This document shows, one piece after another, positions 15,531 to 62,731 of a stretch of DNA of 64,000 bases. Under the pieces are notes generated by a model. It saw nothing but the letters and a program-made list of their open reading frames with translations, was not told where the DNA came from and searched no databases. Made by a program: the position numbers and the translations under genes. The number at the start of each line of letters is the position of its first letter. Positions within the stretch are counted from its first letter, which is position 1. The stretch lies in the IMG/VR virus record IMGVR_UViG_3300046718_001244; one strand, 5' to 3'. Origin of the DNA: an uncultured virus (IMG/VR IMGVR_UViG_3300046718_001244) (lineage: Duplodnaviria > Heunggongvirae > Uroviricota > Caudoviricetes).

Positions 15531-15647
15531 TCACCGCACCCTCCCCGCGAAGTGAATCCCCGCCCAGAACGCCCCGACGACGAGGAGCGCCGCCCCCGCG
15601 GAGAGCCCGACGAGCCCCTCTCTGTCTCCAACCTTGATCATGGTCAT
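15531..15647 (-). CDS. 38-aa TM peptide built on the duplicated segment
   Basis: MTMIKVGDREGLVGLSAGAALLVVGAFWAGIHFAGRVR; overlap-coupled to both neighbours. Confidence 0.5.
   Translation of the reverse strand: MTMIKVGDREGLVGLSAGAALLVVGAFWAGIHFAGRVR
15544..15618. repeat. 75-bp direct repeat copy 1
   Basis: Matches 16176-16250 with one mismatch. Confidence 0.9.
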
Positions 15648-16150: not shown

Positions 16151-16645
16151 TCATCGTCGCGTCCTTTCCGGTTTTCCCGCGAAGTGAATCCCCGCCCAGA
16201 AGGCCCCGACGACGAGGAGCGCCGCCCCCGCGGAGAGCCCGACGAGCCCCCAGTCGGTCCCGGGGTCGTTCGTGTAGGCGGCGACGGTCGGGTCGGGCGT
16301 CGTCAGAGAATCGCCGACCCCCTTCGCGAGATCCTTCCCCGGAGGCCCCGCGAGCGACGGCGTCAAGAGCGGCTTGTAGAGGGTGATCCCCGGGATGCAG
16401 ATCCCCGAGAGGAGCTTGCCGTTCTTGTAGGTCCACGTGTGGTGGTCCTTTCGCGCGACGACGAAGCCGGAGAAGCCGCCCTCTTCCTCGGCGGCGTAGT
16501 CGATCCCCGTCGTCTCGCCGTAGTTCACCTTGGCCATCCAGTGGTCTCTCTGATCGATCGCCCACTGCGAGAGCGGACGAGGGACCGGACCGCGCCAGAT
16601 CGCGTAGCCGTCGGGGGGAGGGGGATTGGGAGGGCAGGTGCTCAT
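16151..16645 (-). CDS. C-terminally anchored membrane protein
   Basis: KGVGD linker, C-terminal TM, TAGACT-N6-ATG start. Confidence 0.7.
   Translation of the reverse strand: MSTCPPNPPPPDGYAIWRGPVPRPLSQWAIDQRDHWMAKVNYGETTGIDYAAEEEGGFSGFVVARKDHHTWTYKNGKLLSGICIPGITLYKPLLTPSLAGPPGKDLAKGVGDSLTTPDPTVAAYTNDPGTDWGLVGLSAGAALLVVGAFWAGIHFAGKPERTRR
16176..16250. repeat. 75-bp direct repeat copy 2
   Basis: Encodes the TM of 16151-16645. Confidence 0.9.
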
Positions 16646-19679: not shown

Positions 19680-21566
19680 GGGGAAGGGTCCTCCTCCATG
19701 ATGAGGCCATTCTTTACGCCGACCTCCGCGAGAGTCTTCACCATCGACTCACGCATCTCCTTCGTCCAGGCAGGTCGCGTCTGGCGTACGGCTGCCGCAA
19801 TGTTGAAGACGACCTCGGTCATCAGACAGGCCAAGGACGCCTCCACGAGTTCTGGCGACGGCTTGGTGGCCGGATTCTGCTCCTTTATCTCACGAAGGAT
19901 GGACGCGCTCCGTCGCACGAGAGCGGCGCACAAGAGATCAAACTCCTGCTCTCGGGGCGTCACGACGACCGCTCCTTCTGCGCCGCATCCATCTCCTGCC
20001 TCGCCGCGACGGCCTTGGCCAAGGCCTGCGCTACGAGCGGGCCAAACTTCTCATCTCCCTCGCCCTGCCCGAACACCTCCCGCAGCGCCATCGAGACGTT
20101 GCAGAAGACCTCGGTGACGAGCATGGTCAGGGCCTGCTCGTAGAGGGCGGCGGCCTCGGGGACCGCGATCGCGAGTCCCTTCGGGGCGTTCTCGATCCGT
20201 CGCGCGATCGCGCTATCGGTCTCCTGCAGGAGCTGGGTCACCCTCAGCTTGAGGGCGCGGTAGAACTTTGGGTCAAAGCGAAGCGTCATCATGGTGTGGG
20301 CCCCTTCCTCGGCCCGAAGTCGCCCCGTCTCCCGTCTGCGCTCCGAATCCCGCAAGGACCCCGGGGCACCACGACCCGTTGACCGCGAGTAACGCTAGGG
20401 AGACAGGGCGGCTTCGATACGAGAAGCCTCCTCGGTAAGAATCGAACGTGCAAGAGAGACCGCCTGCGTGCCGAGATCCGCCGGCGCGACCACATCGAAG
20501 AGCTCCCGCATGGCGTCCGCCCAGTAGGAGGCGCCTCGCGGAGGGAGAGGCTTCGCGAGCTCGCGGGCGAGGACCTCGGCGGGGACGTTCTGTCCGTCGA
20601 AGAGAAGGCGGTCGATGGGGTGCATGATCGGAGCGGGGCGGGAGGTTGGACGAGCGGGGCGGGGTGGGTATTCATGGTAGCGCGTCTCCCGGCGATGCCA
20701 CGGTGGCCATCTGCTGCATGGCCATGAACCGCTCGACGTCCGCCGGCTCCAGTTCGAAGCCCTTGAGGAGGACGCTGAGGCGAAAGAGATCCATGTGGGG
20801 CCGTACGCCCATCGCCCAGAGCCTACGAAACGCCCGCCAGCCCTTCCGGCCCCCGTAGGTGACGCGAGGCATCAGACGAGCCGCGAGGGACCGATCGGAC
20901 GGCGAAAGCGCCGAGCTCACGTCCCATTCGTTGCCGCCGCCGGTGCGACGCAGGTGTACGAGGCGCACAAACTTATCCCGCCGACGGGGTCGCCCAGGGT
21001 ACATGATGCGCCTCATCGCAGCGCCCCCTCTCTCCGCGCGCTCTCGCGTCCGGATGCGTGCAAGATTTGCCCATGCACTAGCAGGAGCAAAACGAGCCCG
21101 AGTTGCTGCCAGAGCGGGCGACCGTGGATGAGCAGGTATCCAAGGGGAATGTAGGTGGCCCAGTCGGCGAGCCTCAGTGTGGTGGAACGCCTCATGTGAG
21201 CCGACCTTGGCGCGCGATGCGCTCACCGATGAGGGCCGCCGCGCTCTCGCAGAGGGCGCCGGCGGACGCGAGGTAGTCTCCGGCGGCGTGGAGCGGGATG
21301 GCCTCGACGGCCGTGACCTCCAGGCCCGCCCCGGTGAGGCGATCGAGGGTATCCGCCATTTCGACGATGAGGCGGGCGGCCTCGCGCATCGTCGCGACGC
21401 ACTGCTTCGCGTCGAACGCCGGCGTCCCACGTACCCGGCCCCACGTGCACGGCGAGAGGAGATGCGCAGCGACGGAACTGCACGTACATCCGTGCACGGG
21501 GCATCCGGGGTCGTCGTCTCCGGCACTGTCGGTCGGTCCGCACGTACACGTCCTTGCTTCGCTCAT
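19676..21566 (-). other. Run of small hypothetical genes
   Basis: Mostly overlap-coupled ORFs, no recognised motifs. Confidence 0.5.
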
Positions 21567-22234: not shown

Positions 22235-23331
22235 GACACCACCTCGAAGGCTTCCCGGGTCGCAAAGGTGGCCTCGCCGTTGCCCTCGGGATCGCGACTG
22301 AGCTTGTAGTCGTCCGGCGCGTCGATGTCTTTCATACGGCGCGGCGTCCAGCTCGTGAACCACACGCCGCTATGGTCTTTGAAGCCGCATCCGGGCCCGC
22401 AGACGAGCCGCACGCGGGTCCCGTCCGGCAAAGCGCGGCGCTCGAGCCGGGCGTACTCCCCGAAGCGGCGAGACCATCCTTCGCGAAGGGCCGCACGCCG
22501 ACGAGCCCACCCTCGCCGGATGGCCCCCCATCCGCCCGACAGGCGGCCCGTGACGAAGGCGCCCGTCGAGAAGCCGAGCATGAAGAACACGAAAGCGGCG
22601 TAAAGGTGGGGACTCATGCTCGCCTCCCCCTGCACGTCACCCGCGTGCCCTGCACCGCCCGCACGAGCGCCCTATCGATCGCCCGGACGACGTTGGCGTG
22701 GGCCTGGAAGACCGGCACGAAGTGCTTCTTCGCGCACCTAGGACAGTAGAGCTTGAAGCAGTCGAGGCACCGGATGGCGACCTTGCCCTCCTCGCGCTTC
22801 ATCGCCTTCCGAGCCGACCGGAACGTCTGCCCCTTCTTCCGTACGGGGTAGCGGAACCCCTGGCTCGAAGAGCCCCAGGTGAGCGACTTGGCGCAGGAGA
22901 AGCACCAGAGGCGGCCCTTGGCGCTCTTGGGGCGACGTCGGCGGACGGGCCAGCGGCAGCAGCGGCAGCGGACGTGGGGCGCGCTCATCGGTCGATCTCC
23001 CCGTGCGTGTCCACCGTGAGCGCGGGCGTATCGTCAAGGCACTGGACGGTGACGGTGACGCGCGAGGCGCCGGCGGCGAGCACGCGCCTGCGCGTCTGGT
23101 TGGCGACCGCGAAGGCGAGCCGACTCCCCGGACCAGGGGAGACCCAGTCCTTGTGGACCGAGTCGCCAAGGCCGACGACGCGGATCGAGCCGAGGTTCAG
23201 CTCGCCGATGTTCTGGTAGCGCTTCTCCCACACCTCGTGGAATTCCGGTCCGGTGCCGCGGACGGCGCGCTTGATCGCCGACCACTTCTCCGCTGGAGCG
23301 TTGGCGAGGATGGTCAAGAGGAATTCCTGGC

Positions 23332-23592
23332 TCATGTGGCGCTCCCGTCTTCGTAGTGGCCATGAGTCTCAAGTCGGGCCCGCGTCTCCGCCAGCTCCGT
23401 CGTGACCATCTCGACCGCCGCCGCGAGGCTCTTGCAGCAGCCTGCGCACTCCCGCAGCGCGTCGGCGACGCGATCGTCGTGCTCGCCGCGACCCAGTTGC
23501 TCGACGTCGTGCGCAAGGCCTTCGGCAGCACCCGCCCTCTCCCTCACCCGCTTGAGGAGCACGGCGACCGTCTCGACTTCCTTGGCGGTCAT
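23332..23592 (-). CDS. Helical protein, tandem paralog B
   Basis: Ends nearly identical to 23690-23953. Confidence 0.7.
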   Translation of the reverse strand: MTAKEVETVAVLLKRVRERAGAAEGLAHDVEQLGRGEHDDRVADALRECAGCCKSLAAAVEMVTTELAETRARLETHGHYEDGSAT

Positions 23593-23689
23593 CGCGCACC
23601 TCTGACGCAATCGACCGATCCGGCGGCGTGCTTACGCGCATCGGTGAGCGACGCCGCGCGGATGGGCCCCGGGACGGACTTGTTGGCGG

Positions 23690-23953
23690 TCATGTGGCGC
23701 TCCCATCCTCGTAGTGGCCGTGTGTTTCAAGTCGGGCCCGCGTCTCCGCCAGGTCCGTCGTGACCATCTCGACCGCCGCCGCAAGGCTCTGCATGCCCCT
23801 CGCTACGTCCGTGGCAATCTGCTGGACGGTCCTCCCGTCCACCGAGTCGCCATCGTCGATGGCCATCTCGTGTGCTGCGTCAAGGACATCGTCCGCCCTC
23901 TCCCGCACCCGCTTGAGCAGCACGGCGACCGTCTCGACTTCCTTGGCGGTCAT
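23690..23953 (-). CDS. Helical protein, tandem paralog A
   Basis: MTAKEVETVAVLLKRVRERA...RARLETHGHYEDGSAT. Confidence 0.7.
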   Translation of the reverse strand: MTAKEVETVAVLLKRVRERADDVLDAAHEMAIDDGDSVDGRTVQQIATDVARGMQSLAAAVEMVTTDLAETRARLETHGHYEDGSAT

Positions 23954-24209
23954 CGCGCCCTCCTCAGGATCGCCCTTGCCGTCGCCACGTAGATGTCCCT
24001 CGCCTCTTTCCCCGTAGGCGAGAGCCAGTAGCCCCCGCGCGCGAAGAAGACCATGGCCTTGCCCTCAAGCGTCGTGAGGCGCTCGACGACAAACCTCTCT
24101 TGCCGGAGGCCGGGCTTGCCTTGGGAGAGAAGCGCGCAGGCGCGCATGAGATCCTGCTCGTCGTCCGCCGCCTGCACGAAGGCGCGGATCCTCGTCTCGT
24201 CGGGGGCGT

Positions 24210-24713
24210 TCACGGAAGCACCTCCGTGGCCGCGTCACTCCGTAGGAACGTCCACTCGCAATCGGGATCGATACCCTGCTGGATCGTGCCGTCGTCGAGC
24301 AATCCGTTCACGCGGTCGGAGAGGCTCTCCTCGTCCACGCCGACGACGTCGAAGGTCAGGACGAGCCGCGTCACCGGAGCGGCTTCCCACGTCCACGAGT
24401 CGGTTCCGATCCTCCAGTGTGGAGCGAGCTCGCATACCTCCGCCATGGAGGCAGGGTGGAACACGTCCGTCTCACCCGAATGCGGCGTGTGGAAGTGATA
24501 GGCCTTCGTAACCTCGTCGTACCACGCGTAGGCGCCGTCGGGCCCGGGGCCCGCGTCCTCTTTCTCAGCCTCCCCTTCGTAATACTCGTTGTGCGCCTCG
24601 ACGATCGCGTCCGCGCTCGCCTTTGGGAATGACGGCCTACGCGCGCCGTTCCAGCGTCCGCCGAGATCCACGCCTTCGACGGGCGGACAGAAGTCTGCGA
24701 TCTGGAAGTACAT
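24210..24713 (-). CDS. Acidic hypothetical early protein
   Basis: RWNG..RPSF and WRIGTDSWTW motifs. Confidence 0.6.
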   Translation of the reverse strand: MYFQIADFCPPVEGVDLGGRWNGARRPSFPKASADAIVEAHNEYYEGEAEKEDAGPGPDGAYAWYDEVTKAYHFHTPHSGETDVFHPASMAEVCELAPHWRIGTDSWTWEAAPVTRLVLTFDVVGVDEESLSDRVNGLLDDGTIQQGIDPDCEWTFLRSDAATEVLP

Positions 24714-24716
24714 GGC

Positions 24717-25148
24717 CTAGATCTCCCTTCCCACGAACGGCGTCCGCTGCAAGCGCCAGCAAGGCTGCGATCCGCCGCCCCCCGTGAACGAGCCGTCACG
24801 CTGGATCGTCTGGACGACGCCCTCGGCAAGGGTCGGGTTGTCGCGCAAGAACGCGCCGAGCGTGGTGATGCTCACTTCCGTGTCCCGCGGCTTGTCGTCC
24901 TTGCCCCACACGTGGAGCGTGTAGAGGCGCTCGCCACCCTTGCGCGCTGCGCGGATCTGCGCCCGGGCGTCCTCCGCCCCGTGGTAGGCGGCGAGGAGCA
25001 CGATGTAGTCGTGCGCGAAGGGATCGGCCGCGTCCCATTCGACGTCGACGACGCGGTGCTCCCGCTTGGGGTTTCCGTATCCGTCGCAGATCATGCGATC
25101 GGAAAACTCTTTCGCCTTCTCGGGCGTGGGGAATTCGAACGTGAGCAT
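24717..25148 (-). CDS. Hypothetical early protein
   Basis: GGAG-N7-ATG start after conserved leader. Confidence 0.6.
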   Translation of the reverse strand: MLTFEFPTPEKAKEFSDRMICDGYGNPKREHRVVDVEWDAADPFAHDYIVLLAAYHGAEDARAQIRAARKGGERLYTLHVWGKDDKPRDTEVSITTLGAFLRDNPTLAEGVVQTIQRDGSFTGGGGSQPCWRLQRTPFVGREI

Positions 25149-25176
25149 GGTGCAGTCTCCGGGTGGGAAGTGTGGC

Positions 25177-25245
25177 GCGCGGATTCGGTTCGCGCTGGCG
25201 TGGGCCCTCCCCTCAAAGAGGGCCCACGGGAAGCGGGACACGAAA
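25177..25245 (-). promoter_or_regulatory. Conserved two-hairpin leader element, copy D
   Basis: TTCGTGTCCCGC - hairpin - GCGCG AACCGAATC CGCGC. Confidence 0.7.
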
Positions 25246-25260
25246 CGGGGTAGGGAAGAC

Positions 25261-26412
25261 TCAGATCCGCATGGGCATCACCACGATGACCCCTCCCTCC
25301 GTTGGACGGATGACGATCGGATCGAGTGCAGTGGAAAAGCCGATCGCGACCGTCTTTTCCGTGCACTCGGCCAGTGCGTCCGTGAGGTAGGTCGCGTTGA
25401 CCCCGATCGAGAAGGGCCCCGCATTCTCACCACGCTTGCCGAGGGCATGCGCGGGACCCGCGATCGTGACGGCCATGGTCTCGCTCGCCTCGCCCTTGTC
25501 GGGGTCTTGCGCGTGGACGCGAAGGGTCCCCTCGCCGGTGAGCGACAGCGTGATCCCGCTCGTCCGGTCGGAGGCGCATCCGCCGATGGCGCCGATCACT
25601 TCGGCGAGCAGGGCCCGGTCGCACGTGACGGTGCGCTCGGAGGACGCAGGGATCACTTGCGCGTAGGGCGGAAACTGGGCGTCGACCTTGCGAAGAGCCA
25701 AGGTCACGCCGCGCACCCTCGCGAACACGGTCTTGACGTCATGCGTCAGCACCACGGGGTCGGGCTTCCGGCCTTTCTTCGGAGCGCAAAGCGCCCGCAA
25801 GGCCTCGCATCCGTCGAGCGAGACGAGAAAGTGGCAGGCGCTCAGGCCTTGCGGCACGTGGGTGTCGACGTCGAGATCCCACATGGCGAGGCGATGCCCG
25901 TCCGTCGACACGAGGCGGATCGACTTCGGATGGATCTCGACGCGCACGGAATTGAGGTGCTCCCGCGTCTGGTCGCGGCTCACGGCATAGAGCACCCGAT
26001 CGAGCGCGGCGCAAAGCGCGGCGTCTCCGACCGTCGCGAGCGCCTTCGCGTCCGCTTCACTGGGCATGGGAGGGCACTGCTCGGGATCCATGCCCGGCAC
26101 CCGGAACGCCCGGGGCCCTTCGGTGAGGGACAGCACGGTCGCGCCCTCGGCGGAAAGCTCGCAATGACCGTTGCGGAAGCGCTTGGCGCGATCGAGCGCG
26201 GTCCGGAGATCCACGGACCGGGCCCACTGGCCCGAACCGTCTCCCGGGATCGTGACCCATGCCGCGCGGTAGAGATCCGTGGCGGCAAGCTTGAGGGATC
26301 CGCCCTCGGCGGCAAGCTGGACGTGGGAGAGAGCGGGTATCGTGCTCCCCTTGGGAGTGATCGTTTTCAGGGTTTCGAGCGCCGCGAGGAGCGCCTTTCT
26401 GTCGACTTGCAT
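25261..26412 (-). CDS. dnaN: DNA polymerase III beta sliding clamp homolog
   Basis: 383 aa; STIPALSHV, LAATDL, YAVSRDQTREHLNSV, LVSTDGHRLA, FPPYAQVIP, IGVNATYL.DAL, VVMPMRI. Confidence 0.92.
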   Translation of the reverse strand: MQVDRKALLAALETLKTITPKGSTIPALSHVQLAAEGGSLKLAATDLYRAAWVTIPGDGSGQWARSVDLRTALDRAKRFRNGHCELSAEGATVLSLTEGPRAFRVPGMDPEQCPPMPSEADAKALATVGDAALCAALDRVLYAVSRDQTREHLNSVRVEIHPKSIRLVSTDGHRLAMWDLDVDTHVPQGLSACHFLVSLDGCEALRALCAPKKGRKPDPVVLTHDVKTVFARVRGVTLALRKVDAQFPPYAQVIPASSERTVTCDRALLAEVIGAIGGCASDRTSGITLSLTGEGTLRVHAQDPDKGEASETMAVTIAGPAHALGKRGENAGPFSIGVNATYLTDALAECTEKTVAIGFSTALDPIVIRPTEGGVIVVMPMRI

Positions 26413-26436
26413 GGTGCGTGGTCCTGTCGGGTTACT

Positions 26437-26505
26437 GCGCGGAATTCGGTTCGCGCGGTCGTGGTCTCTCCCTCCGAGAGAGGCCACGGGACGCGGGACA
26501 CGAAA
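26437..26505 (-). promoter_or_regulatory. Conserved two-hairpin leader element, copy C
   Basis: TTCGTGTCCCGC - hairpin - GCGCG AACCGAATTC CGCGC. Confidence 0.7.
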
Positions 26506-26508
26506 AGG

Positions 26509-26706
26509 TCAGCCGTCGACGGACACGCGCGGCATCGCGACCGCGACGTTCCGTTCCCCTCCGATCATGTCCACCTTGTAGTGCGGAAAGGCGTAGGACG
26601 TGGAGCCTTGCGGAAACGCGGCCCGCACGATCGCGAGGTACCAACCGTCACCCACGAGCACTCGCACGTGCGCTCCGGGCCGGAAGGTCGGGGTATGGGT
26701 CGCCAC
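26509..26706 (-). CDS. Small SH3-like hypothetical protein
   Basis: FRPGAHVRV...WYLAIV...HYKVD. Confidence 0.5.
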   Translation of the reverse strand: MATHTPTFRPGAHVRVLVGDGWYLAIVRAAFPQGSTSYAFPHYKVDMIGGERNVAVAMPRVSVDG

Positions 26707-26708
26707 GG

Positions 26709-26900
26709 CTAGTACCCTCCCCCCTCGTCGCGATCGGCGCACGCGTCGCACTGGTACCCATGGGCCCGGTCTTTCGGCGTGAGCATGTTAGGGCGCTTGC
26801 ACGAGGGGCAAGGCAGGTTCCGAGGGTTGCGCTTGGAAGCGGCCCGGAGCGCCGAGCGGCCCCCGGGATCGGCAAAGTCGGAGCGATCGTCGTCGTACAC
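26709..26900 (-). CDS. Small zinc-ribbon protein
   Basis: CPSC...YQCDAC. Confidence 0.65.
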   Translation of the reverse strand: MYDDDRSDFADPGGRSALRAASKRNPRNLPCPSCKRPNMLTPKDRAHGYQCDACADRDEGGGY

Positions 26901-26919
26901 GGTGTGGTCCTTTCTGGCT

Positions 26920-26985
26920 GCGCGGATTCGGTTCGCGCTCGCGGGCCCCGGGATTCGGTTCCGGGCCCCGCAAGCGAGAGACGAA
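26920..26985 (-). promoter_or_regulatory. Conserved two-hairpin leader element, copy B
   Basis: Both hairpin loops carry AACCGAAT. Confidence 0.7.
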
Positions 26986-27002
26986 CGTCTCTCTCTCCCT
27001 AT

Positions 27003-27425
27003 TCACGCCGCTTTCGCGGCTCCCTCCTTTCGCGCCCAGTAGTCGGATACCCACGCGATGACGGGCGCGCAAAGGGCCGTGTACGCCTCGATCGCGCCGT
27101 GTCGATTGCCGTGGCACTGGCCCGGTTCGGCGTCTCGCTTGAACGCCTCCCACGACGTCATGGGAGCAAAGGAGCACTGCGCCCACACTCCCCACGGGCC
27201 CCCGTGCTCAGGCATGGCAGACGGGGCAGGAGCGATCGTCACGTTGACGTGGGCGCGAGGGCACCCTTCCCCGTAGCTTCCTAGGCCTAGCCCGAAACGG
27301 ACGCGGCTCGCCTTGATCTCCGGGCCCCCCTGAGGCGCCCACGTGGCGAGGCAATGCACGTGGTACGCGAAGGTAGAGAGCACGTGCGCCACGGTCGGAA
27401 CCTCGATCGGGGTCGGCGCTTTCAC
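27003..27425 (-). CDS. Hypothetical early protein
   Basis: Coupled ORF. Confidence 0.55.
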   Translation of the reverse strand: MKAPTPIEVPTVAHVLSTFAYHVHCLATWAPQGGPEIKASRVRFGLGLGSYGEGCPRAHVNVTIAPAPSAMPEHGGPWGVWAQCSFAPMTSWEAFKRDAEPGQCHGNRHGAIEAYTALCAPVIAWVSDYWARKEGAAKAA

Positions 27426-27919
27426 GAGGCCACCTTGAATTCGCAGGCGAGCCGATGGCACTCCGTTTCCGAGTGTCCCTCCGCTCGGAACCTCGCATAG
27501 GCACGCTGGAACACGATCCAGCCCTGCGTTTCGTTGCGAAGGCTAGGCGGAAGGGACGCCACGAATTCGGCGTCGTCCGTGTCGTGCGACCAGAGAACTT
27601 GTGCAAGGTGGCCGATCGCGTTGTCGATCGTTGCCTCACGGCCCGCGATTGCGAGGCACGAGACCGAGTAACCGCCCGTGAACGTGTCCAGCCAGTAACT
27701 CCAGCCGTACGCGTCCGGGAACACGATGAAAGCGTGTCCGCGCCACGTTCCGAGGTAGGTACCGCGGTCGAGACGCACGAGAGCATCAGCGCACGCCTTC
27801 TCGCACGCGTCGCTTGCCTCTTTCGCCGTGGCGCCTTGAACGCGGATCGGACCGAGACTCGCGGCATGCGCCACGATGCGCCCGCGCGCGTTCTTGAGTG
27901 TCGACAGTGACGGTTTCAT
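27422..27919 (-). CDS. Hypothetical early protein
   Basis: AAGGA-CACC-ATG start after conserved leader. Confidence 0.6.
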   Translation of the reverse strand: MKPSLSTLKNARGRIVAHAASLGPIRVQGATAKEASDACEKACADALVRLDRGTYLGTWRGHAFIVFPDAYGWSYWLDTFTGGYSVSCLAIAGREATIDNAIGHLAQVLWSHDTDDAEFVASLPPSLRNETQGWIVFQRAYARFRAEGHSETECHRLACEFKVAS

Positions 27920-27935
27920 GGTGGGATCCTTCGCT

Positions 27936-28010
27936 GCGCGGGATTCGATTCGCGCCCGCGGGGTCTCTCTCCCGTGTTTCGTTCGGAGAGACCCCGCAAG
28001 CGGGACGCGA
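27936..28010 (-). promoter_or_regulatory. Conserved two-hairpin leader element, copy A
   Basis: TCGCGTCCCGC - hairpin - GCGCG AATCGAATCC CGCGC. Confidence 0.65.
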
Positions 28011-28013
28011 TCC

Positions 28014-28460
28014 CTAGCCTTCCGCGCTTGCCTCCCCTTCCACGTGCTCGTCGCACGCATACCGCATGGTGTCGGCAATGTGGCGGATCGCAGCGTATTG
28101 GATGACCGCGATCCTTCGTTCGGTCTCGTCTGGCATGCCCATGTCGCTTGCCTCGGCTTCCGCTGAGGACCACGTGTCGGTCAGACAGAAATCCGCCGCC
28201 CACTGGTAGAGATCCTTCGTGTAGACGTCGACACGACCGTCCGCATGGGAGTGGACGTCATCTTCATCGGAGAGGGATCCCTCGTCGAAAGCCTCGACAG
28301 CGGCACGGCACTCGCTGTAGATCCAGTCTGTAGGTAGCGTGCCGTTGTGAGCCTCGCGGATCGCTTCCTTGAGCCAGTCCGGGGCCGTGTCGTTCAGCGT
28401 GACGAAAGACTCGCCACTGTCGCGGGTCTTGGTCTCGAAGTGAGACGCGAGCGTAGCCAT
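28014..28460 (-). CDS. Ocr-like acidic DNA-mimic anti-restriction protein
   Basis: Highly acidic; DEDDVHSHADGRVDVYTKDL resembles T7 gp0.3 HMAADNAVPHYYAD; first gene of the leftward operon. Confidence 0.6.
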   Translation of the reverse strand: MATLASHFETKTRDSGESFVTLNDTAPDWLKEAIREAHNGTLPTDWIYSECRAAVEAFDEGSLSDEDDVHSHADGRVDVYTKDLYQWAADFCLTDTWSSAEAEASDMGMPDETERRIAVIQYAAIRHIADTMRYACDEHVEGEASAEG

Positions 28461-28574
28461 GGTGCGGGATCCTTTCCTGAGGTAGGGCGAGGAGGCGATT
28501 CGGGCGCCTCACTCGTCTCACAATGATAGACGGCCACTTTCGAGAAAGATTCACCTACCGAGAGGTTTTTTGAG

Positions 28575-28627
28575 CGGGTCAAAAGTGACTCACTACAGCG
28601 TCACTGGATCGGGTCAAAAGTGACTCA
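28575..28627. repeat. Two exact 18-bp repeats CGGGTCAAAAGTGACTCA (28575-28592, 28610-28627), operator-like
   Basis: Seen directly in the AT-richer divergent intergenic region. Confidence 0.8.
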
Positions 28628-28792
28628 GTTCGCCTCCCTCAGGTCAGAAAAACGGGCCCTCAGGGCTCCCCCTCAGAGCCTCAGGCGAGGGCCCTAGAAT
28701 CCCTCTACCGGGGTAGGCTTTTGGACACCGCCTGTCCAACGGCGTTTGCGATGGGCCTATCGAGGCCTTATGTTGGGGCTAAGCGCGCCTCG

Positions 28793-29206
28793 ATGCTCCG
28801 AACGATCCCGACAAACGACGGTTACGCGTACCGGGCGCTTCGCGTCGTCGAGCAATTCGGGCCGGCTGGATGCTCGGTCGCCCAGTTTTCTGCGGCGTTT
28901 TTCCGGCGCAAGCCGCCGAGCGCCAAGGCCAAGCGACGCAGCCCGCTCTACCAGAATCCCATCGGGTCTCAGGTGCTTGGCTGGCTCGCCGGGCGCGGCT
29001 TTCTCTTGGCCCTGGACAGCCGCGCGCTGACGCGCGATCGCGTGTACGTGCTCGCGCCGGCGGGCCGGACGTTCATTGCGGGCATGCTCGAGGCGGCCGC
29101 CGAGCGTGCGAACGAGCTCGCGGCCGCCCACGGGATGCCCCCGCCCTCCGCCGAGGAGCCGCCCCAAGAGCCCACCACGGACGGCGTCGGGAGCTGGGAA
29201 CCATGA
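28793..29206 (+). CDS. Winged-helix-like hypothetical protein
   Basis: LGWLAGRGFL...YVLAPAGR wing pattern. Confidence 0.5.
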   Translation: MLRTIPTNDGYAYRALRVVEQFGPAGCSVAQFSAAFFRRKPPSAKAKRRSPLYQNPIGSQVLGWLAGRGFLLALDSRALTRDRVYVLAPAGRTFIAGMLEAAAERANELAAAHGMPPPSAEEPPQEPTTDGVGSWEP

Positions 29207-30330
29207 GCGCAAAGCGCGCCCAGAAGCCCGCCAAGGCGTCTCCTGCAGCCAAGAGGCGATCGGCTGCAGGAAGGCGCAGGCCTGTCCGTCGCCGACGGGA
29301 TCGCTGGTTTGCGTACGGGTCGCTCATGCAGGGCCCGATCTACGGGCCGACCGGGAGCGCAGGGGGCGTAATGATCTTGACGCTCGGGCGCACATTCACC
29401 GTGGCGGGCGTCGCCTTTCCGGACGCGTCCGACGCGAGGAGCGGCGGCATGGGCGCCTTCTTCGACAACCACGCCCACGCGATCATCGCCGAGGGCGTCC
29501 GCTCGCTCGCCGAAGCGAAGAAGCTCGGGGACGCCTGGGCGAGGAAGTTCCGGAAGGGGCTCGTGCTCGCGCCGTGCGCGTGCGAGGACATGGTCGAGGC
29601 GGGGAAGCCGTCCAAAGGTCCCGTCACGTTCGAGCTGGGCTCGATGCGCGCGGTCCACTCGCTCGGGTGCAACTGCGAGGAGTGCACGCGGGGGCCCATA
29701 GGGCTCTTGCCTGCGGCCCCGCCATCGGCGCCGGCGGTCCTGCACCTGGGCCATCCGTTCGGGCGCACGATCGATGACCTCGAGAGCGGTCGCATCGAGG
29801 TCTCCTGGCGCGACCCCTGCCCCATCTGCCGCAAGGCGTACGCGGAGCACGGACGTCAGCCGTGCACGGACGCGACGGAGTGGTTCGCGGGAATGAAGGC
29901 GCAGACGCGTCAGGTCCGCATGCGAACAGCCTGGCTCGCGCGGGAGCGGGCGATTCACTCCGGTACGCCGCGCAAGGAGCCGCCGCCGATCGAGGGAACG
30001 CTGTCGAGCCGCATCGTCGCGTCGCCCAACTTCTCGCCGGAGGAGAAAGCGATCTGCGCGCTCTGCGGCCACACCCGGATCGAGCATCTCACCGTCGGGC
30101 CCTCGACGTGCCAGTCGTGCCACGGGTGCCTCGAATTTCAGACTACGAGCGACGCTCGGGGACCGCTGGCGGACGCCGCGCATGGCGCCTGCCCTCCTTC
30201 GCCGTCGGGTGAGCCCGAGCAGACGGCGACTCTCACGGGAGCGGAGTTCCTCGACGCGATCCACGAGGCCCTCCCCGATGCGTTCTCCGACCTGGACGAC
30301 GTCCTGGTCGGACCGGAAGGGTCCCCATGA
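29203..30330 (+). CDS. Multi zinc-finger hypothetical protein
   Basis: HSLGCNCEEC, CPIC...EH, CALCGH...EH...CQSC. Confidence 0.55.
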   Translation: MSAKRAQKPAKASPAAKRRSAAGRRRPVRRRRDRWFAYGSLMQGPIYGPTGSAGGVMILTLGRTFTVAGVAFPDASDARSGGMGAFFDNHAHAIIAEGVRSLAEAKKLGDAWARKFRKGLVLAPCACEDMVEAGKPSKGPVTFELGSMRAVHSLGCNCEECTRGPIGLLPAAPPSAPAVLHLGHPFGRTIDDLESGRIEVSWRDPCPICRKAYAEHGRQPCTDATEWFAGMKAQTRQVRMRTAWLARERAIHSGTPRKEPPPIEGTLSSRIVASPNFSPEEKAICALCGHTRIEHLTVGPSTCQSCHGCLEFQTTSDARGPLADAAHGACPPSPSGEPEQTATLTGAEFLDAIHEALPDAFSDLDDVLVGPEGSP

Positions 30331-31433: not shown

Positions 31434-32054
31434 GTGACCCGCGCCGCCCTCTACCTCCGCGTCTCCCGCGACGACCTCTCGCTCGACAACCAGCGCCTCG
31501 AGCTCGAAGCGATGTGCCGCCGCAGAGACCTCACGATCGTCACGACCTATGAGGAGCAGGAGAGCGCCGCGGCGCGCGATCGCCCCGTGCACGACAAGAT
31601 GCTAGCCGACGCCCACGCTGGCGCCTTCGAAGTCGTCGTCGTCTGGGCGCTCGATCGCCTCGGGCGCTCGATGTACGGCAACATCCAGGACGTCCTCAAA
31701 CTCGACGCGTGCGGCGTGCACATCGCGAGCGCCCAGGAGCAGTGGCTCGACACCGTGGGCCCCGTCCGCCAGCTCCTCGTGGCGATCTTCTCGTGGGTCG
31801 CCCAGCAGGAGCGCGATCGTCTCATCGAGCGCACCAAGGCCGGCCAGGCAAGAGCTCGCGCGCAGGGAAAGACCATCGGCCGGCCGAAGCGGGTCACCCC
31901 CGAGATCCAGGCGAAGATCGACCGGCTCGTCGCCGACGACCTCACGATCCGCGAGATCTCCATGGCGGTGCACCTGCCGAAGGACACCGTGCACCGGGCG
32001 GTCCGGGATGCGAAGCGGCGTCGCGAAAGCCCCGTCGAGAAAGGTGCCGCGTAA
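31434..32054 (+). CDS. Small serine recombinase (resolvase/invertase)
   Basis: ALYLRVS...Q; VVVWALDRLGRS; ERDRLIERTKAG; GRP; C-terminal HTH. Confidence 0.92.
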   Translation: MTRAALYLRVSRDDLSLDNQRLELEAMCRRRDLTIVTTYEEQESAAARDRPVHDKMLADAHAGAFEVVVVWALDRLGRSMYGNIQDVLKLDACGVHIASAQEQWLDTVGPVRQLLVAIFSWVAQQERDRLIERTKAGQARARAQGKTIGRPKRVTPEIQAKIDRLVADDLTIREISMAVHLPKDTVHRAVRDAKRRRESPVEKGAA

Positions 32055-33716: not shown

Positions 33717-35237
33717 TCATGGGGAACCTCCGTTGAGCAGCTTGACCGCCTCGCGCGATCGCCCTTCCTGCTTGTCGAACCACGCCTTGATCGACCGGGC
33801 CACCGCCTCGGCGAGCGGCGGCGGCATGGCCATGCCGATCTGCGCCCAGCGCGCCTTCTTCGTGTCGCCCGCGAAGAGCCAGCCCTCGGGGAAGCCCTGC
33901 AGGATGGCGGCCGCCTTCTCGGAGAGCTTCACGGCGTTCGGGTGGCTTCTGGCCCTGTCGCCATCGGCGCCCAGCCAGTTTTCGTCATGGTGACACGGCG
34001 GCGGTAGGCGGTCGTCACTCTGCAACGTCGTGGACGGCCGGTCCCACGGCCACGTCAGGCACCGCGCCCCCTTGCTCCCCCCGCCATCCGACGCCGAGAT
34101 CGTGAACGCGGGCTCTTCGCTCTCGCTCACCGGATGCCGCTCGTGCACGACGAGCACCTGCGCGCCCTGGCCTCCGCGGTCTCGGGCGCCCAAGGTCGGC
34201 GCCGGCGCGTCGAGCTCGGCGCCGGGGTGACGGTCGTTCGGGACGAGGGACACGATCTGCAGGAGCGCCCCGTCGCTATGCGAGTTCTTGGTCAAGGTCC
34301 GCGCCGGCGCGTCGGGATGCGACGGCCGGTGGTCCGGGCCGTCGAAGACCACGTTGCCTCCGCCATTCGACCTCGTCGTCACGACGTCGGCCGGCGCGTC
34401 CACGTGCGACGCCCGGGGTTTCTTACCCGGTTCTTTCCGGGAGCGCTTCCCCTCCCTCACCGCCTCGGTCGGATGGGCGAGGACGTTGCCGTCCGAGAGA
34501 TTCGAGGTACCAACGACGCGCGCCGGCGAGTCGGGAACCGAGGCGACCTGCTTGCCGTTCGCGCCGCGCCACCGCAGACGCACGGGCACGCCGAGATCCT
34601 CGGCGGAGAGATGCTGCAAGGCCTGCCGGCAGGTGACCCACGGGGCGAGCTCGCGGACCCCCGGGAGCGCCCCCGTCCGAAGGCTCTTCGGGTCCGCGTG
34701 CGTCGGCTCGGGCCAGGCGATGTGGGGAGCCCGCATCGGGTGCCCGAACCAAAACGGCCGCACCCGGTGCTGCGGTACCCCGTAGGCCGAGGCGTTCAGG
34801 CGCTGGAAGTCGATGCAGTAGCCCTCGGCCGTGAGGCTCCCGATGGTCTTCTGCACGATGGGCCAGTTCGGGCCATCGTCGAGGCCTGGGACGTTCGCGA
34901 TGAGCCACGCGGTCGGACGGAGCAGCCGAACGAGCCTCACCGTCTCGCCGATGAGGTCTCTGGCGTCCTCCTGCCCCTTGCGCTTGCCGGCGCGTGACCA
35001 GGGTGTGCACGGGGGATCCGCGACGAAGAGGTCGATCTTGCTCCCGGGGCTCCACCCGCTCTCGACCATTCGCAGGAGATCCCGGACGTCCATGCGCACC
35101 GGCGCGTGGCCGAGGTTCTTCGTGTAGGAGGCGACGGCGTCGGGGTCGTAGTCGAAGGCCATGTCGACGTCGATGCCGCCCCGGCGAAGGCCCTCGGCCA
35201 TGCCGCCGGAGCAGGGGAAGAGTTCGACGACGTTCAC
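33717..35237 (-). CDS. C5 cytosine DNA methyltransferase, atypical motifs
   Basis: ELFPCSGG, PPCTPWSRAG, ANV, YGVPQHRVR, LQGFP, QIGMAMPP. Confidence 0.88.
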   Translation of the reverse strand: MNVVELFPCSGGMAEGLRRGGIDVDMAFDYDPDAVASYTKNLGHAPVRMDVRDLLRMVESGWSPGSKIDLFVADPPCTPWSRAGKRKGQEDARDLIGETVRLVRLLRPTAWLIANVPGLDDGPNWPIVQKTIGSLTAEGYCIDFQRLNASAYGVPQHRVRPFWFGHPMRAPHIAWPEPTHADPKSLRTGALPGVRELAPWVTCRQALQHLSAEDLGVPVRLRWRGANGKQVASVPDSPARVVGTSNLSDGNVLAHPTEAVREGKRSRKEPGKKPRASHVDAPADVVTTRSNGGGNVVFDGPDHRPSHPDAPARTLTKNSHSDGALLQIVSLVPNDRHPGAELDAPAPTLGARDRGGQGAQVLVVHERHPVSESEEPAFTISASDGGGSKGARCLTWPWDRPSTTLQSDDRLPPPCHHDENWLGADGDRARSHPNAVKLSEKAAAILQGFPEGWLFAGDTKKARWAQIGMAMPPPLAEAVARSIKAWFDKQEGRSREAVKLLNGGSP

Positions 35238-42756: not shown

Positions 42757-43578
42757 TCAGCCGCCACCCACGATGCGGATCCGGTAGGCGTCGGAGACGA
42801 CGATGCCGCAGAGGTCGGCGAGTTGCTCGATCGCGGTGACGTTCGACATGTCGGTGGCGTAGTCGCCCTGGGGCACCCAGGCCCGCCAGGAGACGGTCAC
42901 GTCGATCGGCGCGAAGGGGAGGGTCACCGACGCGTGGAAGTCCATGAAGAACTGCTGCTGGTAGGTGAGGATGAACCCTTCCGGCCACAACCCCGAGCCG
43001 TTCGCGGAGTCGAAGAGGGTGGAGAGAGGCGTAAACTTCTCCGCGATCGTGTACCGGGGAGCCCCCTGAACGGAGAGCGTCGCCTCGATGCCGCTCTGGA
43101 CGTTGTAGAAGTAGTCCGATTGGGGCTGAAAGACGTTGGAGTTGGCGGTGTTCGACTGGTTGGTGATCCGGACCAACGCCTCGTCGATGAAGGTGTCCTG
43201 CACGATCTTGACGTCGGATCCCACGTCCGGGATGTCGGTCGTGTCGGTCGAGGTGAAAGAGGCTCGCACGTTGATGAGAAACGGCACGAGCTTGATGCCG
43301 AGGGCTTTGCAGAGCGCCAGCCGGGGAGATCCGAGCACCAGCATCTCGTAGGCGTCGTCGTAGAACGCGGAGGAGGCGTCGCTCACGTCGCCGAGCCCGG
43401 CGATCCGTTCCGCACGCTTCTCGTCGCGCTTCGCCCAGTTCGGGACCTCGCCGACCCCGCACACGAAGCCGCCGAGGCGCCCACGTCGGGCTGCGGGAGA
43501 CCCCACACCCGTCGAGCCGCGCTTCGCGAGCTCGGCCTCGAGCCGGTCCATGCGGGCGATGAGGGTGTCTTGTTCCAT
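42757..43578 (-). CDS. Putative second jelly-roll capsid protein
   Basis: Alternating beta strands (PFLINVRASF, IEATLSV, WPEGFIL, IDVTVSWRAW) after a GxG-rich leader. Confidence 0.45.
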   Translation of the reverse strand: MEQDTLIARMDRLEAELAKRGSTGVGSPAARRGRLGGFVCGVGEVPNWAKRDEKRAERIAGLGDVSDASSAFYDDAYEMLVLGSPRLALCKALGIKLVPFLINVRASFTSTDTTDIPDVGSDVKIVQDTFIDEALVRITNQSNTANSNVFQPQSDYFYNVQSGIEATLSVQGAPRYTIAEKFTPLSTLFDSANGSGLWPEGFILTYQQQFFMDFHASVTLPFAPIDVTVSWRAWVPQGDYATDMSNVTAIEQLADLCGIVVSDAYRIRIVGGG

Positions 43579-43688
43579 GGGCGATTTCCTCGAACGAAGA
43601 GAGAGGAAGAGGGTTGGGGGAGGAGGACTCGCGCGCGCAGCCTGCACCAGGCAGACCGCGCGCGCTCGCCCTCACGTGAAAGAGTCGC

Positions 43689-45101
43689 TCAGGTCGCGCC
43701 CTGCGTCGCGAACCGGATGCCGCAGGCGGCCATGACGACCTCGCGGATGTCCGCGGAGCCGTTCATGAGGTTGTACCAGTCCTCGGTCACCTCGAACCCC
43801 TTGATCATGAGCGACAGCTTGAAGTCGCCGCTCTTGAAGATGGTCCGCGCGTTGAGGACGTTCTGGCCCGAGGTCGGGTAGACGCCGTCGAGCGAGCGCT
43901 CGGGGAGAAACGAGGTGGCGGTGTTCGGGATGGTCGTGTACTCGGTCTCGATCGGGGGGATCGTGCCGCCCTGGCCGACCGTGATGTCCATCGCCCGGCG
44001 CATCTGGTCGCCCTGGTCTTGATCATTCTCCTGGAGGAAAAGCCCGATCGGCACTCCGGGCTTGATGACGTACGGCAGCGCGAGCTTCCGGAACTCGCTG
44101 TTGCCGCGGAGCATCGATCGGAGGTCCATGCCGCCGAAGGTCGCGCCGACGCGATCGAAGTCGCGGGTGGGCAAAAACGCTCCGGGAAAGGGCGCCACGC
44201 CCGCGGTGGAAACACTTCCGAGCCGGAGGTAGTTCGCGATGAGGAAGATGAGGCCCGATCCCAGAGAGGCGTACCGGAGGTTCATCTGGTTGACGAAGTC
44301 GACGACGTCGACCTCGCTCGAGGAGGCAGACCCGTCCTGCGCATTCGGGGGCATGTACGCGGTGTGCCGGAGCACCTCGTCCATGATGTTGGTGTGCTGG
44401 CCGATCTTCCACCGGAGGTTGTACCCGCGGACGAGGTGCCACGCGGCGTAGTTCGACCACCAGCCGTGCTGCAGGACCGCGGGCACGAAGGCATCGCCCG
44501 CGAAAGCTCCTCCCTCGGCGAAGCCGAGCGCCGTGGCGTCGGCACTGGTGAAGACGTCGGGCGATCCGGGGACCGTGGCGGGGGCCGTATCGGGAACGGT
44601 CCAGCCGTTGCCGATCGTGTCCCACTGCATCGGCTCGGTCTCGACGTGGAAGCCGATGTAGCAGGCGACGAAGTACGTCTGGGTCTGGCCCGTCTGGGCC
44701 ATCGTCGTCTCGACGTAGTCGATGCCGGGGACCGAAGTTCCTCCTCCGAAGAGGTCGATCTTCGCGCCGAAGTTCGAGCGGAGCGAAGCCGGGGTCTGCG
44801 GGCCGAGCATGCCCCAGCGGACCTGCTCGATGACGTCCATGTTCCAGACGGGGTTGCCGACGCTGTTCGAGATGAGGTCGATGATCGAGCCCAATCCCGC
44901 GGCGCCGACGCCGGCGGGCCAGTTCTTCGTGCGATCGCCGTGCACCCACTCGTCGGGGTTGCCGAGGCCGCAGGCCTTGAGCTTCTCGACGTTCACCCGC
45001 TGGCCGATGCCGACCTGGAAGCGCGGCGCGCTGTCGATCTTCTTGGTCTTCTGCTGGAAGTTGGCCGCGCGCTGCTTGCTGGGAAGGATCTGCATGGACA
45101 T
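43689..45101 (-). CDS. Putative major capsid protein, jelly-roll-like
   Basis: 470 aa; IDLF..., ETTMAQTGQ..YFVACYIGF, KLALPYVIKPGVPIGLFL, KLSLMIKGFEV recall vertical jelly-roll capsid strands; no HK97 signatures seen. Confidence 0.55.
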   Translation of the reverse strand: MSMQILPSKQRAANFQQKTKKIDSAPRFQVGIGQRVNVEKLKACGLGNPDEWVHGDRTKNWPAGVGAAGLGSIIDLISNSVGNPVWNMDVIEQVRWGMLGPQTPASLRSNFGAKIDLFGGGTSVPGIDYVETTMAQTGQTQTYFVACYIGFHVETEPMQWDTIGNGWTVPDTAPATVPGSPDVFTSADATALGFAEGGAFAGDAFVPAVLQHGWWSNYAAWHLVRGYNLRWKIGQHTNIMDEVLRHTAYMPPNAQDGSASSSEVDVVDFVNQMNLRYASLGSGLIFLIANYLRLGSVSTAGVAPFPGAFLPTRDFDRVGATFGGMDLRSMLRGNSEFRKLALPYVIKPGVPIGLFLQENDQDQGDQMRRAMDITVGQGGTIPPIETEYTTIPNTATSFLPERSLDGVYPTSGQNVLNARTIFKSGDFKLSLMIKGFEVTEDWYNLMNGSADIREVVMAACGIRFATQGAT

Positions 45102-62537: not shown

Positions 62538-62731
62538 AACTTCTCACCTGGACCCTCGTCTACCTGGCGGTCGCCGCTTTGACGCTCGGCATCGCATGGT
62601 CGATCCACGAGCGCCACGAGCGCACGAGCGAGGTCGCGGTGGCAGCCTGCGTGATGGGCCTCTTTTGGCCGTTCTCGATTGTGGTCATACTGGGCGTCAA
62701 GATCGGCAACAGGTTGCGGAGCAAGAAGTGA
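62534..62731 (+). CDS. Small two-TM protein
   Basis: Two hydrophobic segments, GLFWP. Confidence 0.6.
   Translation: MKLLTWTLVYLAVAALTLGIAWSIHERHERTSEVAVAACVMGLFWPFSIVVILGVKIGNRLRSKK

Follow-up and report, generated by a model that had tools for sequence, protein, structure and literature searches.

A repeated intergenic element with two predicted folds in the putative early gene cluster of an uncultured soil virus

The early precursor RNA of phage T7 carries five RNase III signals (PMC3867540). In the cited accounts such signals receive a single-strand cut at irregular helices, typically of two turns though 12 bp suffices (PMC1540722; PMC8708148). G-C pairs at some positions are described as inhibiting E. 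coli RNase III (PMC1540722), these rules on the proximal and distal boxes being those of E. coli, while the host considered here differs. In B. subtilis, downstream hairpins were described as stabilising cleavage products (PMC11780869). Small ribozymes also occur near phage genes, where processing of polycistronic RNA has been suggested for them (PMC6765202), and the RNA anti-CRISPRs termed Racrs are reported to be intergenic and adjacent to anti-CRISPR genes (PMC10651486).

The element described here is found as four copies, A to D, in the predicted early gene cluster (a predicted operon) of a 71-kb uncultured soil virus. Positions are those of the window, the whole stretch of 64,000 nt that was analysed, and all genes, copies and sites placed below are on its minus strand. 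The first early gene (28014..28460) encodes an acidic protein of 148 aa with a predicted Ocr-like fold. When its AlphaFold2 model (pLDDT 94.7) was compared with 48,161 chains, the top match was T7 Ocr (1s7z, Z 7.5, rmsd 3.2, 96 aligned) and the second-ranked chain had Z 4.6; Foldseek and sequence searches with the same protein gave no match. The name 'Ocr-like' used in the preliminary description is thus moderately supported by the structural match. Copy A (28010-27936; TCG 28010-28008, 5-nt spacer, long stem 28002-27953, small hairpin 27955-27936) is followed by a 165-aa gene of no family (27422..27919) and then a 140-aa gene (27003..27425) whose start overlaps the preceding gene and which has no element in front. 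Copy B (26984-26920; long stem 26976-26936, small hairpin 26938-26920) precedes a 63-aa Cys-rich gene (26709..26900), after which a 65-aa gene (26509..26706) follows at a 2-nt gap, likewise with no element in front. Copy C (26503-26437; long stem 26495-26454, small hairpin 26456-26437) precedes a DNA polymerase III beta-clamp homologue (25261..26412; three Pfam beta-subunit domains, phrog_947) and copy D (25243-25177; long stem 25235-25193, small hairpin 25195-25177) a 143-aa gene of no family (24717..25148). The copies lie 3' of a stop codon and 15-28 nt 5' of a start with a purine-rich ribosome site. Between 28460 and 24717 they occupy 4/4 spacers longer than 10 nt, the remaining junctions being overlaps or gaps of 2-3 nt.

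The 13-mer GCGCGAAYCGAAT occurs four times in the 71,365-nt contig, always within copies A-D, against a mean of 0.025 and a maximum of 1 in 200 dinucleotide shuffles. Box and 13-mer together, a pattern chosen after the copies had been seen, occur four times against 0 in 200 shuffles. Folding z was -3.7 for A, -3.0 for B and -1.9 for both C and D; a longest-helix measure over 23 spacers, which breaks at inner loops, failed to separate copies from shuffles, and folding z was used alone. The conserved intergenic element is real. Its coordinates and strand in the preliminary description were correct on recheck, as was the loop said to be on both stems of copy B, where the inner hairpin (26971-26941) has the loop AACCGAATC. 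Other details were altered. The long stem varies as described but the stem of the small hairpin is invariant among A-D; CGAAT is present in the small hairpin but the actual loop is of 9-10 nt, AAYCGAAT plus 1-2 pyrimidines; and the supposedly common box reads TCGTCTCTCGC in copy B, where it carries the -10 of a promoter-like site. The fifth hairpin, E (28515-28488; 10 bp, one bulge), is present with its loop CCCGAAT at a predicted transcript start but lacks the box and the long stem.

The idea of two separate hairpins had to be abandoned, as the GCG at the opening of the small hairpin is also the partner of the CGC in the box, which makes the two hairpins overlap and compete. Fold 1 is predicted to be a single long interrupted hairpin made up of TCG:CGA, a 5x5 loop, CGC:GCG and a variable upper stem. 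Fold 2 is predicted to combine the upper stem with a 5-bp hairpin having an AAYCGA loop. The folds are mutually exclusive because both hairpins use the one GCG. The frame TCG-N5-CGC...GCG-SS-AAYCGA is kept in 7/7 distinct copies, these being the four in the window and three in distant viruses, and the invariant TCG..CGC / GCG..CGA parts enclose an upper stem of unrelated sequence. The long form predicted for all seven has an upper stem of 13-19 bp (from CGC:GCG), the 5x5 loop and a lower stem of 3-7 bp, which is about two helical turns; the stems hold 12-14 G-C among 15-19 pairs. A wobble, mismatch or small loop is predicted at upper-stem position 5 in 7/7, 1-3 nt 5' of the shared GCG. Within the 5x5 loop the Y.Y apposition n1:m5 swaps C.U and U.C in step in 7/7 copies, and positions n2 and n3 vary. 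Among the window copies the folds are separated by 0.1-2.1 kcal/mol, and among the distant ones the long form is the more stable by 3.6-7.3 kcal/mol. The folding probability of the small hairpin was 0.82-0.99 in 3' pieces versus 0.17-0.91 in the full spacer, pieces beginning 0-8 nt 5' of the GCG being predicted to fold it. A G-U strand test of RNA versus single-stranded DNA gave 7 versus 5.

The three distant copies are orthologues before a single gene family, different from those in the window and with at least 253 members, and a stretch of 16 nt is invariant across them. Small-hairpin pairs 4-5 are C-G,G-C in the four window copies and G-C,C-G in the three distant ones, and the long-form pair n4:m2 flips from C-G to G-C along with them. 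Given these compensating flips, which represent one evolutionary event between two clades and not a significance test, both folds appear to be conserved. Two doubtful candidates were excluded, namely L120, which has a strong stem but no ribosome site, and L169, with E 0.019. The Rfam check proposed in the preliminary description was run with Rfam 15 (ribozymes, riboswitches, CRISPR repeats) on window positions 23000-30000 and on L128, L104 and L129, and no family scored a hit overlapping any of the copies, with E values of up to 10 allowed. The absence of a match and the compensatory changes in the distant homologues support the earlier view of an unclassified structured cis element. Full-text literature searches, which leave supplementary motif tables outside their reach, found no description under the promoter motif, repeated phage RNA motifs or this virus family. 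The element represents a putative RNA motif family, so far undescribed, whose core is small and sharply delimited.

Model R1 found the element in 1/10 related-virus records, and model R2 gave a match in 2/5, both of them training records. The element is dispensable within the virus family, as most of the related viruses searched are without it. A search of 10 other records for the gene family that follows the distant copies gave none; a strict pattern in viral_contigs gave 14 loci and a second pattern 10 loci, none with the element's architecture; scans with a single protein, either the Ocr-like one or the clamp, gave no match; the element was not found beside the Ocr-like gene in 36 loci of that family; and cultured phages and plasmids gave no relevant match. 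A comparison with host REP elements over 201 genomes of the order of G009, a set outside which the probable host group lies, gave 19 matches versus a similar number reversed. With at least 253 members in the downstream family, many more copies are probably within reach. Long tail-less hairpins of other sequence were seen by eye, without a control, in early spacers of L017, L026, L028, L034, L042 and L050.

In a near relative, copy D departs from the window copy at 3 nt out of 69 (the difference listed is in the terminal loop), and the adjoining clamp gene has about 88 differences in 512. The copy 5' of the clamp gene in contigs of X3 and X6 is identical to window copy D over 33 nt, which points to sequence exchange between copies in near relatives. 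The swappable cassettes of the preliminary description remain conjectural despite this exchange, since the one gene clearly missing, the 65-aa gene that X3 and X7 contigs of near relatives lack, is not bordered by a copy on both sides. The genes after E and A gave no alignment at 80% in one relative, the intervening letters not being known.

Two promoter-like sites are present, P1 (TGAAT-N17-CGTC, 28529..28553) and P2 (TGAAT-N18-CGTC, 26980..27005), the -10 of P2 being the copy B box, overlapped by a small stem-loop. By its consensus the P1 motif is of the ECF type. The pattern occurred 23 times in five related viruses versus 0 times reversed. The distance from the -10 to the beginning of the hairpin is at most about 15 nt for P1 and hairpin E, and at most about 10 nt for P2 and the inner hairpin of B; a third promoter-like site at 20674 is without such a hairpin. 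An ECF-like site is found in 1/4 window copies (B), and the box of the three distant copies is without a promoter. Relatives repeat promoter cassettes (7 in L016, 10 in L050), and three sigma70-like cassettes adjoin the distant copy of G007. Between 23500 and 29500 there were 0 sigma70-like sites and no terminator-like site was called on the gene strand; no U-tract follows the long stems on either strand. The loop CGAAT was rejected as a -35, since none of the copies has CGTC 16-17 nt further downstream, and copy D as a decayed promoter (TGAGT-N16-CGTG), the spacing not being kept in a relative.

The reading that we favour, though tentatively and at less than an even chance, is that the element works as a T7-like mRNA processing signal of the RNase III type in which the small hairpin caps the new 5' end. 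A host double-strand RNase would cleave the long hairpin, after which the released 3' piece would adopt the small hairpin with its AAYCGA loop at the new 5' end, and this hairpin may stabilise the piece or recruit a protein. Hairpin E and the inner hairpin of B would give primary transcripts similar 5' ends without a cut, and the long early message would be divided into single-gene pieces. We infer that the element acts as RNA, and likewise the enzyme and the cut site. Processing is favoured because all four spacers are occupied, the frame is kept in 7/7 copies, position 5 is predicted to be irregular and the flips compensate; because the 3' pieces refold better, E and the inner hairpin of B lie at predicted starts and the Ocr-like gene comes first; and because copy D is conserved more than the adjoining clamp gene in the near relative. 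Against it count the 16-nt invariant stretch and the kept loop, which exceed the needs of a nuclease that reads structure; the G-C-rich stems, given the inhibition of E. coli RNase III by G-C pairs at certain positions; the single-event flips, the orthology of the distant copies and their preference for the long form; the lack of a hairpin at site 20674; and the absence of the element from most relatives. Among the functions listed in the preliminary description a processing site fits best, and one copy per spacer is hard to reconcile with boxB-like antitermination.

The near equality of the folds within the window, the recurrence of the kept loop sequence in E and the inner hairpin of B, and a 5' competitor strand beginning 1-18 nt past the stop codon would also be explained by a translational switch without a cut. 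A host or viral protein bound to the loop would set translation of the next gene, and the ribosome finishing the upstream gene would cover the TCG-N5-CGC strand and so favour the small hairpin. This is unlikely, since accessibility of the ribosome site is nearly equal between the states, the loop length ranges from 6 to 10 nt and no RNA-binding candidate was found. Occlusion of the Shine-Dalgarno sequence by an anti-SD after the stop, by which the earlier proposal of a translational operator could work, was seen in single folds of A, C and D and was ruled out by the shuffle control (177, 97, 71 and 47 of 200 shuffles were as closed or more). The short conserved core, the freely variable peripheral stem and the in-step n1:m5 swap would suit an undescribed class of self-cleaving ribozyme acting to separate cistrons, with the frame around the 5x5 loop as its core. 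We consider it improbable, as there is no matching Rfam family, n2 and n3 vary and small ribozymes do not usually conserve an alternative fold. An HDV-like ribozyme needs room for P3-L3-P3 and the 3' strand of P1 before P4, and only 5 nt lie between TCG and the long stem in 7/7. The hairpin ribozyme has an invariant G+1 in loop A plus a loop B; GTC is missing in copy B and the three distant copies, and no loop-B motif was seen by eye. The broader proposal of a new self-cleaving or two-fold-switching class of viral RNA with a compact core, splitting an anti-defence operon into single-gene messages that would all be capped by the AAYCGA-loop hairpin, in a large family of uncultured, probably tailless myxobacterial viruses is rather unlikely.

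Copy B, with promoter, overlapping stem-loop and ribosome site, together with the repeated cassettes of the relatives and the exchange in X3 and X6, could be taken for a PeSL-like DNA cassette, a duplicated and mostly decayed unit of these three parts which would dampen read-through and offer a recombination site at which genes are shuffled. That is decidedly improbable given that three of the four window copies and the three distant ones have no promoter at the box, that there is no U-tract, that single-copy compensated homologues have no need of a recombination partner and that copies do not border the missing 65-aa gene on both sides; whatever the function, recombination may come as a by-product. 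A pair of adjoining stem-loops, about 70 nt in all, and CGAAU-loop hairpins directly 3' of P1 and P2 much as putL follows PL (PMC9378689), would fit an antitermination or anti-pause RNA in the manner of HK022 put or of boxB, by which host RNA polymerase would be modified. A put site comes once per early promoter, and the element is in every spacer, three of four without a promoter, with no terminator-like site on the gene strand in 23500-29500, all of which makes this reading very improbable. The anti-defence neighbourhood, and the ends of copy A, which we take to resemble type I-C repeats, raise the thought of a CRISPR-repeat mimic (an RNA anti-CRISPR) or of a single-stranded-DNA signal, for which there is hardly any likelihood: Rfam has no CRISPR-repeat match, the distant copies lose the resemblance and a variable insert of 30-44 nt interrupts it. 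A tRNA-like cloverleaf (no ARAGORN call, no conserved acceptor pairing) and a palindromic DNA operator (spacer of 6-10 nt) were rejected.

If the processing model is true, then the T7 strategy, with Ocr first and nuclease punctuation of the early message, has a counterpart in an unrelated G-C rich virus family, and its added refolding step, by which each new 5' end is protected, would offer a transferable module for adjusting operons in G-C rich bacteria. If the element cleaves itself, it would be a new ribozyme class.

In comparison with known systems, the element shares with the small ribozymes near phage genes, as the cited account presents them, a conserved core, a variable peripheral stem and a viral intergenic position (PMC6765202); unlike them, it has no Rfam family match and the known layouts misfit. 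The PeSL of the T4-type phages RB49 and phi1 are described as repeated stop-to-ribosome-site units with a stem-loop in a variable early region (PMC2839356), and the stem-loop with a 3' Shine-Dalgarno sequence between stop and start is found here too, as are a promoter with overlapping stem-loop (copy B) and exchange between copies. The strong sigma70-like promoter of each PeSL cassette is not; the element differs from that description in having a promoter of another kind in 1/4 copies, a conserved two-fold core and single-copy homologues. HK022 put RNA, compared by layout and not by sequence, is alike in its size of about 70 nt, its two stem-loops and its early region (PMC9378689), but the element comes once per spacer and not per promoter, and its stems overlap. 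The T7 early signals, R1.1 and four others, are likewise irregular long hairpins between early cistrons with Ocr first, without a U-tract and, in the accounts cited, with structure kept while sequence varies (PMC3867540; PMC8708148). Unlike these, the element combines an invariant frame with stems very rich in G-C, it has on the 3' side a second hairpin, overlapping and compensated, whose loop is repeated at predicted transcript starts, and its cleavage is putative.

The element repeated in the predicted early gene run is a real viral cis element with two predicted folds that appear conserved, and it is apparently undescribed. Its four minus-strand intergenic copies (A, B, C and D) and hairpin E, the CGAAT-loop hairpin before the Ocr-like gene, lie where the preliminary description had placed them. 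An acidic protein of 148 aa is encoded first in the leftward gene run, which starts at 28460 and also contains a beta-clamp homologue; we infer that the run is early from its gene content and the promoter-like sites. The 148-aa protein gave a confident structure model with T7 Ocr as top match (Z 7.5, rmsd 3.2, 96 aligned, next Z 4.6), although a Z below 8 may, by the search tool's own warning, reflect a common arrangement. Between 28460 and 24717 the element occupies every spacer longer than 10 nt (4/4). Its four occurrences far exceed chance: 200 dinucleotide shuffles gave a mean of 0.025 for a shared 13-mer and 0 for the box plus 13-mer, a pattern picked once the copies were known. Searching the window with a model built from the four copies gave no fifth full copy.

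Each copy runs from a stop codon through 3–18 nt, TCG, 5 nt, CGC, a variable stem and GCG, and then through CG, AAYCGAAT with 1–2 pyrimidines, CGCGC and 16–28 nt containing AGGA or GGAG and CACC to a start codon. In the predicted long form TCG pairs with CGA of the loop, followed by a 5x5 internal loop and CGC:GCG, while in the predicted short form, a small hairpin, GCGCG is paired with CGCGC; GCG is common to both. The computed energy gap between the folds is 0.1–2.1 kcal/mol in the window copies, and RNA pieces starting 0–8 nt 5' of GCG have a predicted small-hairpin probability of 0.82–0.99. Upper-stem position 5 is a wobble, mismatch or small loop in 7/7 copies. No U-tract was found on either strand at the copies and the intrinsic-terminator test failed. 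The window small hairpins resemble the reverse complement of a tRNA T-arm, and several chance matches of the relaxed pattern described below look like antisense tRNA ends (L099, L105, L115, L130, L182, L188).

The motif model made from the window copies (R1) gave a single match, in one of ten records (G007, 29.8 bits, E-value 3e-5). A relaxed pattern matched at least 120 viral loci; among those listed, 31 had a complementary small hairpin, five of these also had a strong long stem, and four of the five had in addition a ribosome site and a start 15 nt downstream, all being features outside the requirements of the pattern. These four distant loci represent three distinct sequences, L129 (twin L187), L128 and L104, and all are followed by one protein family, 41–57% identical and unrelated to the window genes. 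In the distant small hairpin, GCGGC-AATCGA-GCCGC, pairs 4 and 5 are flipped relative to the window copies. Position 4 of the 5-nt spacer is flipped as well, which preserves its pair in the long form; these compensatory flips are a single event between two clades. Beside TCG:CGA lies a pyrimidine pair, C.U in copy A and all three distant sequences, U.C in the remaining window copies (B, C and D). Among the three distant orthologues, double changes occur in 2/22 consensus pairs, 16 nt across the small hairpin are invariant, and the long form is preferred by a computed 3.6–7.3 kcal/mol. The island of G007 that holds a distant copy (L085 15484–15631, 15630–15777, 16724–16871; 17669–18703) has a sigma70-like promoter/hairpin/ribosome-site cassette three times, as well as an ISXO2 transposase and a pentapeptide-repeat gene; G013 has the same cassette type upstream of homologous genes.

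Near-relative contigs from four sequencing runs (X3, X5, X6, X7) align across the elements while adjacent genes drop below 80%. One near relative has 3 differences in the 69 nt of copy D versus about 88/512 in the adjoining clamp gene. The copy before the clamp gene in X3 and X6 matches window copy D, not C, identically over 33 nt, and being D-type points to exchange between copies. Inspection of loose ends by eye revealed a relative of B-inner, the hairpin inside copy B's long stem, that has the loop of E (CCCGAAT) on an altered yet paired stem, and a small hairpin with a base pair changed to G-U. A 65-aa gene is absent from the X3 and X7 contigs, and two copies do not flank it. The genes following E and A, which do not align at 80% in one relative, may have been replaced or may simply have diverged.

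All Rfam models fail on the copies, in keeping with the earlier view of the element as unclassified. No description of it was found in the literature searched, a listing in a supplementary motif table being possible. Other intergenic repeats occur in relatives. L024 (123–8539) contains a AAACTCCC-n5-GGAGTTTTCC hairpin in at least 7 intergenic copies and a second repeat containing CTATTGTCAA in 6. A parallel element of different sequence occurs three times in L036 (219–238, 718–772, 1165–1219): a long variable hairpin and, behind it, a conserved TTGGGGYGTTGGAGG leader upstream of start codons. Early spacers near the Ocr-like gene in L017, L026, L028, L034, L038, L042 and L050 have long hairpins without a U-tract, unrelated in sequence to the window element.

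The motif TGAAT-N16/17-CGTC has four sites in the record, two in the element region: P1 (28529–28553, minus) upstream of E and P2 (26980–27005, minus) with its -10 within copy B's box. The others are at 20649–20674 (minus), without a CGAAU-loop hairpin at the start, and at 62492 (plus). In five related viruses it was counted 23 times and its reversed form 0 times; relatives have it repeatedly on the gene strand ahead of short genes (7 in L016, 10 in L050). This family-wide motif, which is not sigma70-like and was not found named in the literature searched, recurs before early genes, also in L035 and L061–L063, and several sites have a small, PeSL-like stem-loop that overlaps the -10 or lies in the spacer. 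The motif resembles the consensus of ECF-sigma promoters, which suggests that an ECF-type sigma drives early transcription; P1 and P2 transcripts are predicted to start with E and B-inner, each with a CGAAU loop. Upstream of P1 (28572–28627, 28636–28679) a 21-nt direct repeat occurs twice, 35 nt apart, and CCCTCAG three times; these are likely operators or an origin and adjoin a divergent gene (28793–29206, plus) with a predicted winged-helix fold.

The window covers the leading 64,000 nt of a record that totals 71,365 nt, at about 68% G+C. The runs in which the region occurs come from soil or rhizosphere DNA; 3 of 15 contain at least half of its words, one perhaps being the source. Of 120 listed homologues of a gene linked with the distant copies, 2 carry names from Polyangiaceae/Polyangiales bins, which hints weakly at a myxobacterial host. 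No terminase or portal was found in the scanned window proteins (about 40 of some 130), possibly indicating a large family of tailless viruses. A conserved 470-aa protein (43689–45101, minus) has 224 homologues and no family; its predicted structure, of low confidence (pLDDT 62.6), is similar to jelly-roll capsid proteins, with an SPV1 chain as top match (Z 6.9). This putative capsid protein has no match among cultured phages and has relatives in G007 and G014 (33% and 40%). The spacer after its gene (43578–43689, minus) folds strongly (z -4.3) and is unrelated to the element. Also encoded are a Thg1-like guanylyltransferase (62731–63570, plus), a RadC-like JAB protein (58292–59299, minus), a C5 methylase (33717–35237, minus) and a resolvase (31434–32054, plus). 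A gene is duplicated in tandem (23332–23592, 23690–23953; 101-nt ends 93% identical), and a 75-nt repeat (99%) lies at 15544–15618 and 16176–16250, 632 nt apart.

Position, frame, variable stem and two compensated folds would together be most simply accounted for by RNase III-type processing with refolding of the 3' piece, a reading that we favour tentatively and by analogy. The long form would be an irregular hairpin of roughly two turns, the type cut by RNase III in the T7 early precursor. Cleavage close to the weak spot would give a message starting a few bases 5' of GCG, which would fold the small hairpin at its new 5' end; E and B-inner would give primary transcripts a similar 5' end. Passages in the sources cited describe five RNase III signals in the T7 early precursor (PMC3867540), cutting of one strand at irregular helices (PMC1540722; PMC8708148) and stabilisation of cleavage products by downstream hairpins in B. 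subtilis (PMC11780869). However, the stems are G-C rich and E. coli RNase III has antideterminants (as a passage of PMC1540722 relates), the sequence is conserved beyond the needs of a structure-reading enzyme, a strand test on G-U pairs gave 7 versus 5, and most relatives searched lack the element.

Two alternating folds might instead form a protein- or ribosome-coupled switch, but the ribosome-site occlusion test was negative and we consider this unlikely; a new ribozyme class would be more doubtful still. A DNA cassette like the PeSL outlined in PMC2839356 is improbable, as the element fails the PeSL promoter test, and an antiterminator like HK022 put, as sketched in PMC9378689, is distinctly improbable given failure of the put placement test. 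A CRISPR mimic or single-stranded DNA signal, following a passage in PMC10651486, seems very improbable indeed. A small residual probability is assigned to none of these readings. In its proposed working the element is most like the T7 early processing signals, and it is a putative signal of that type.
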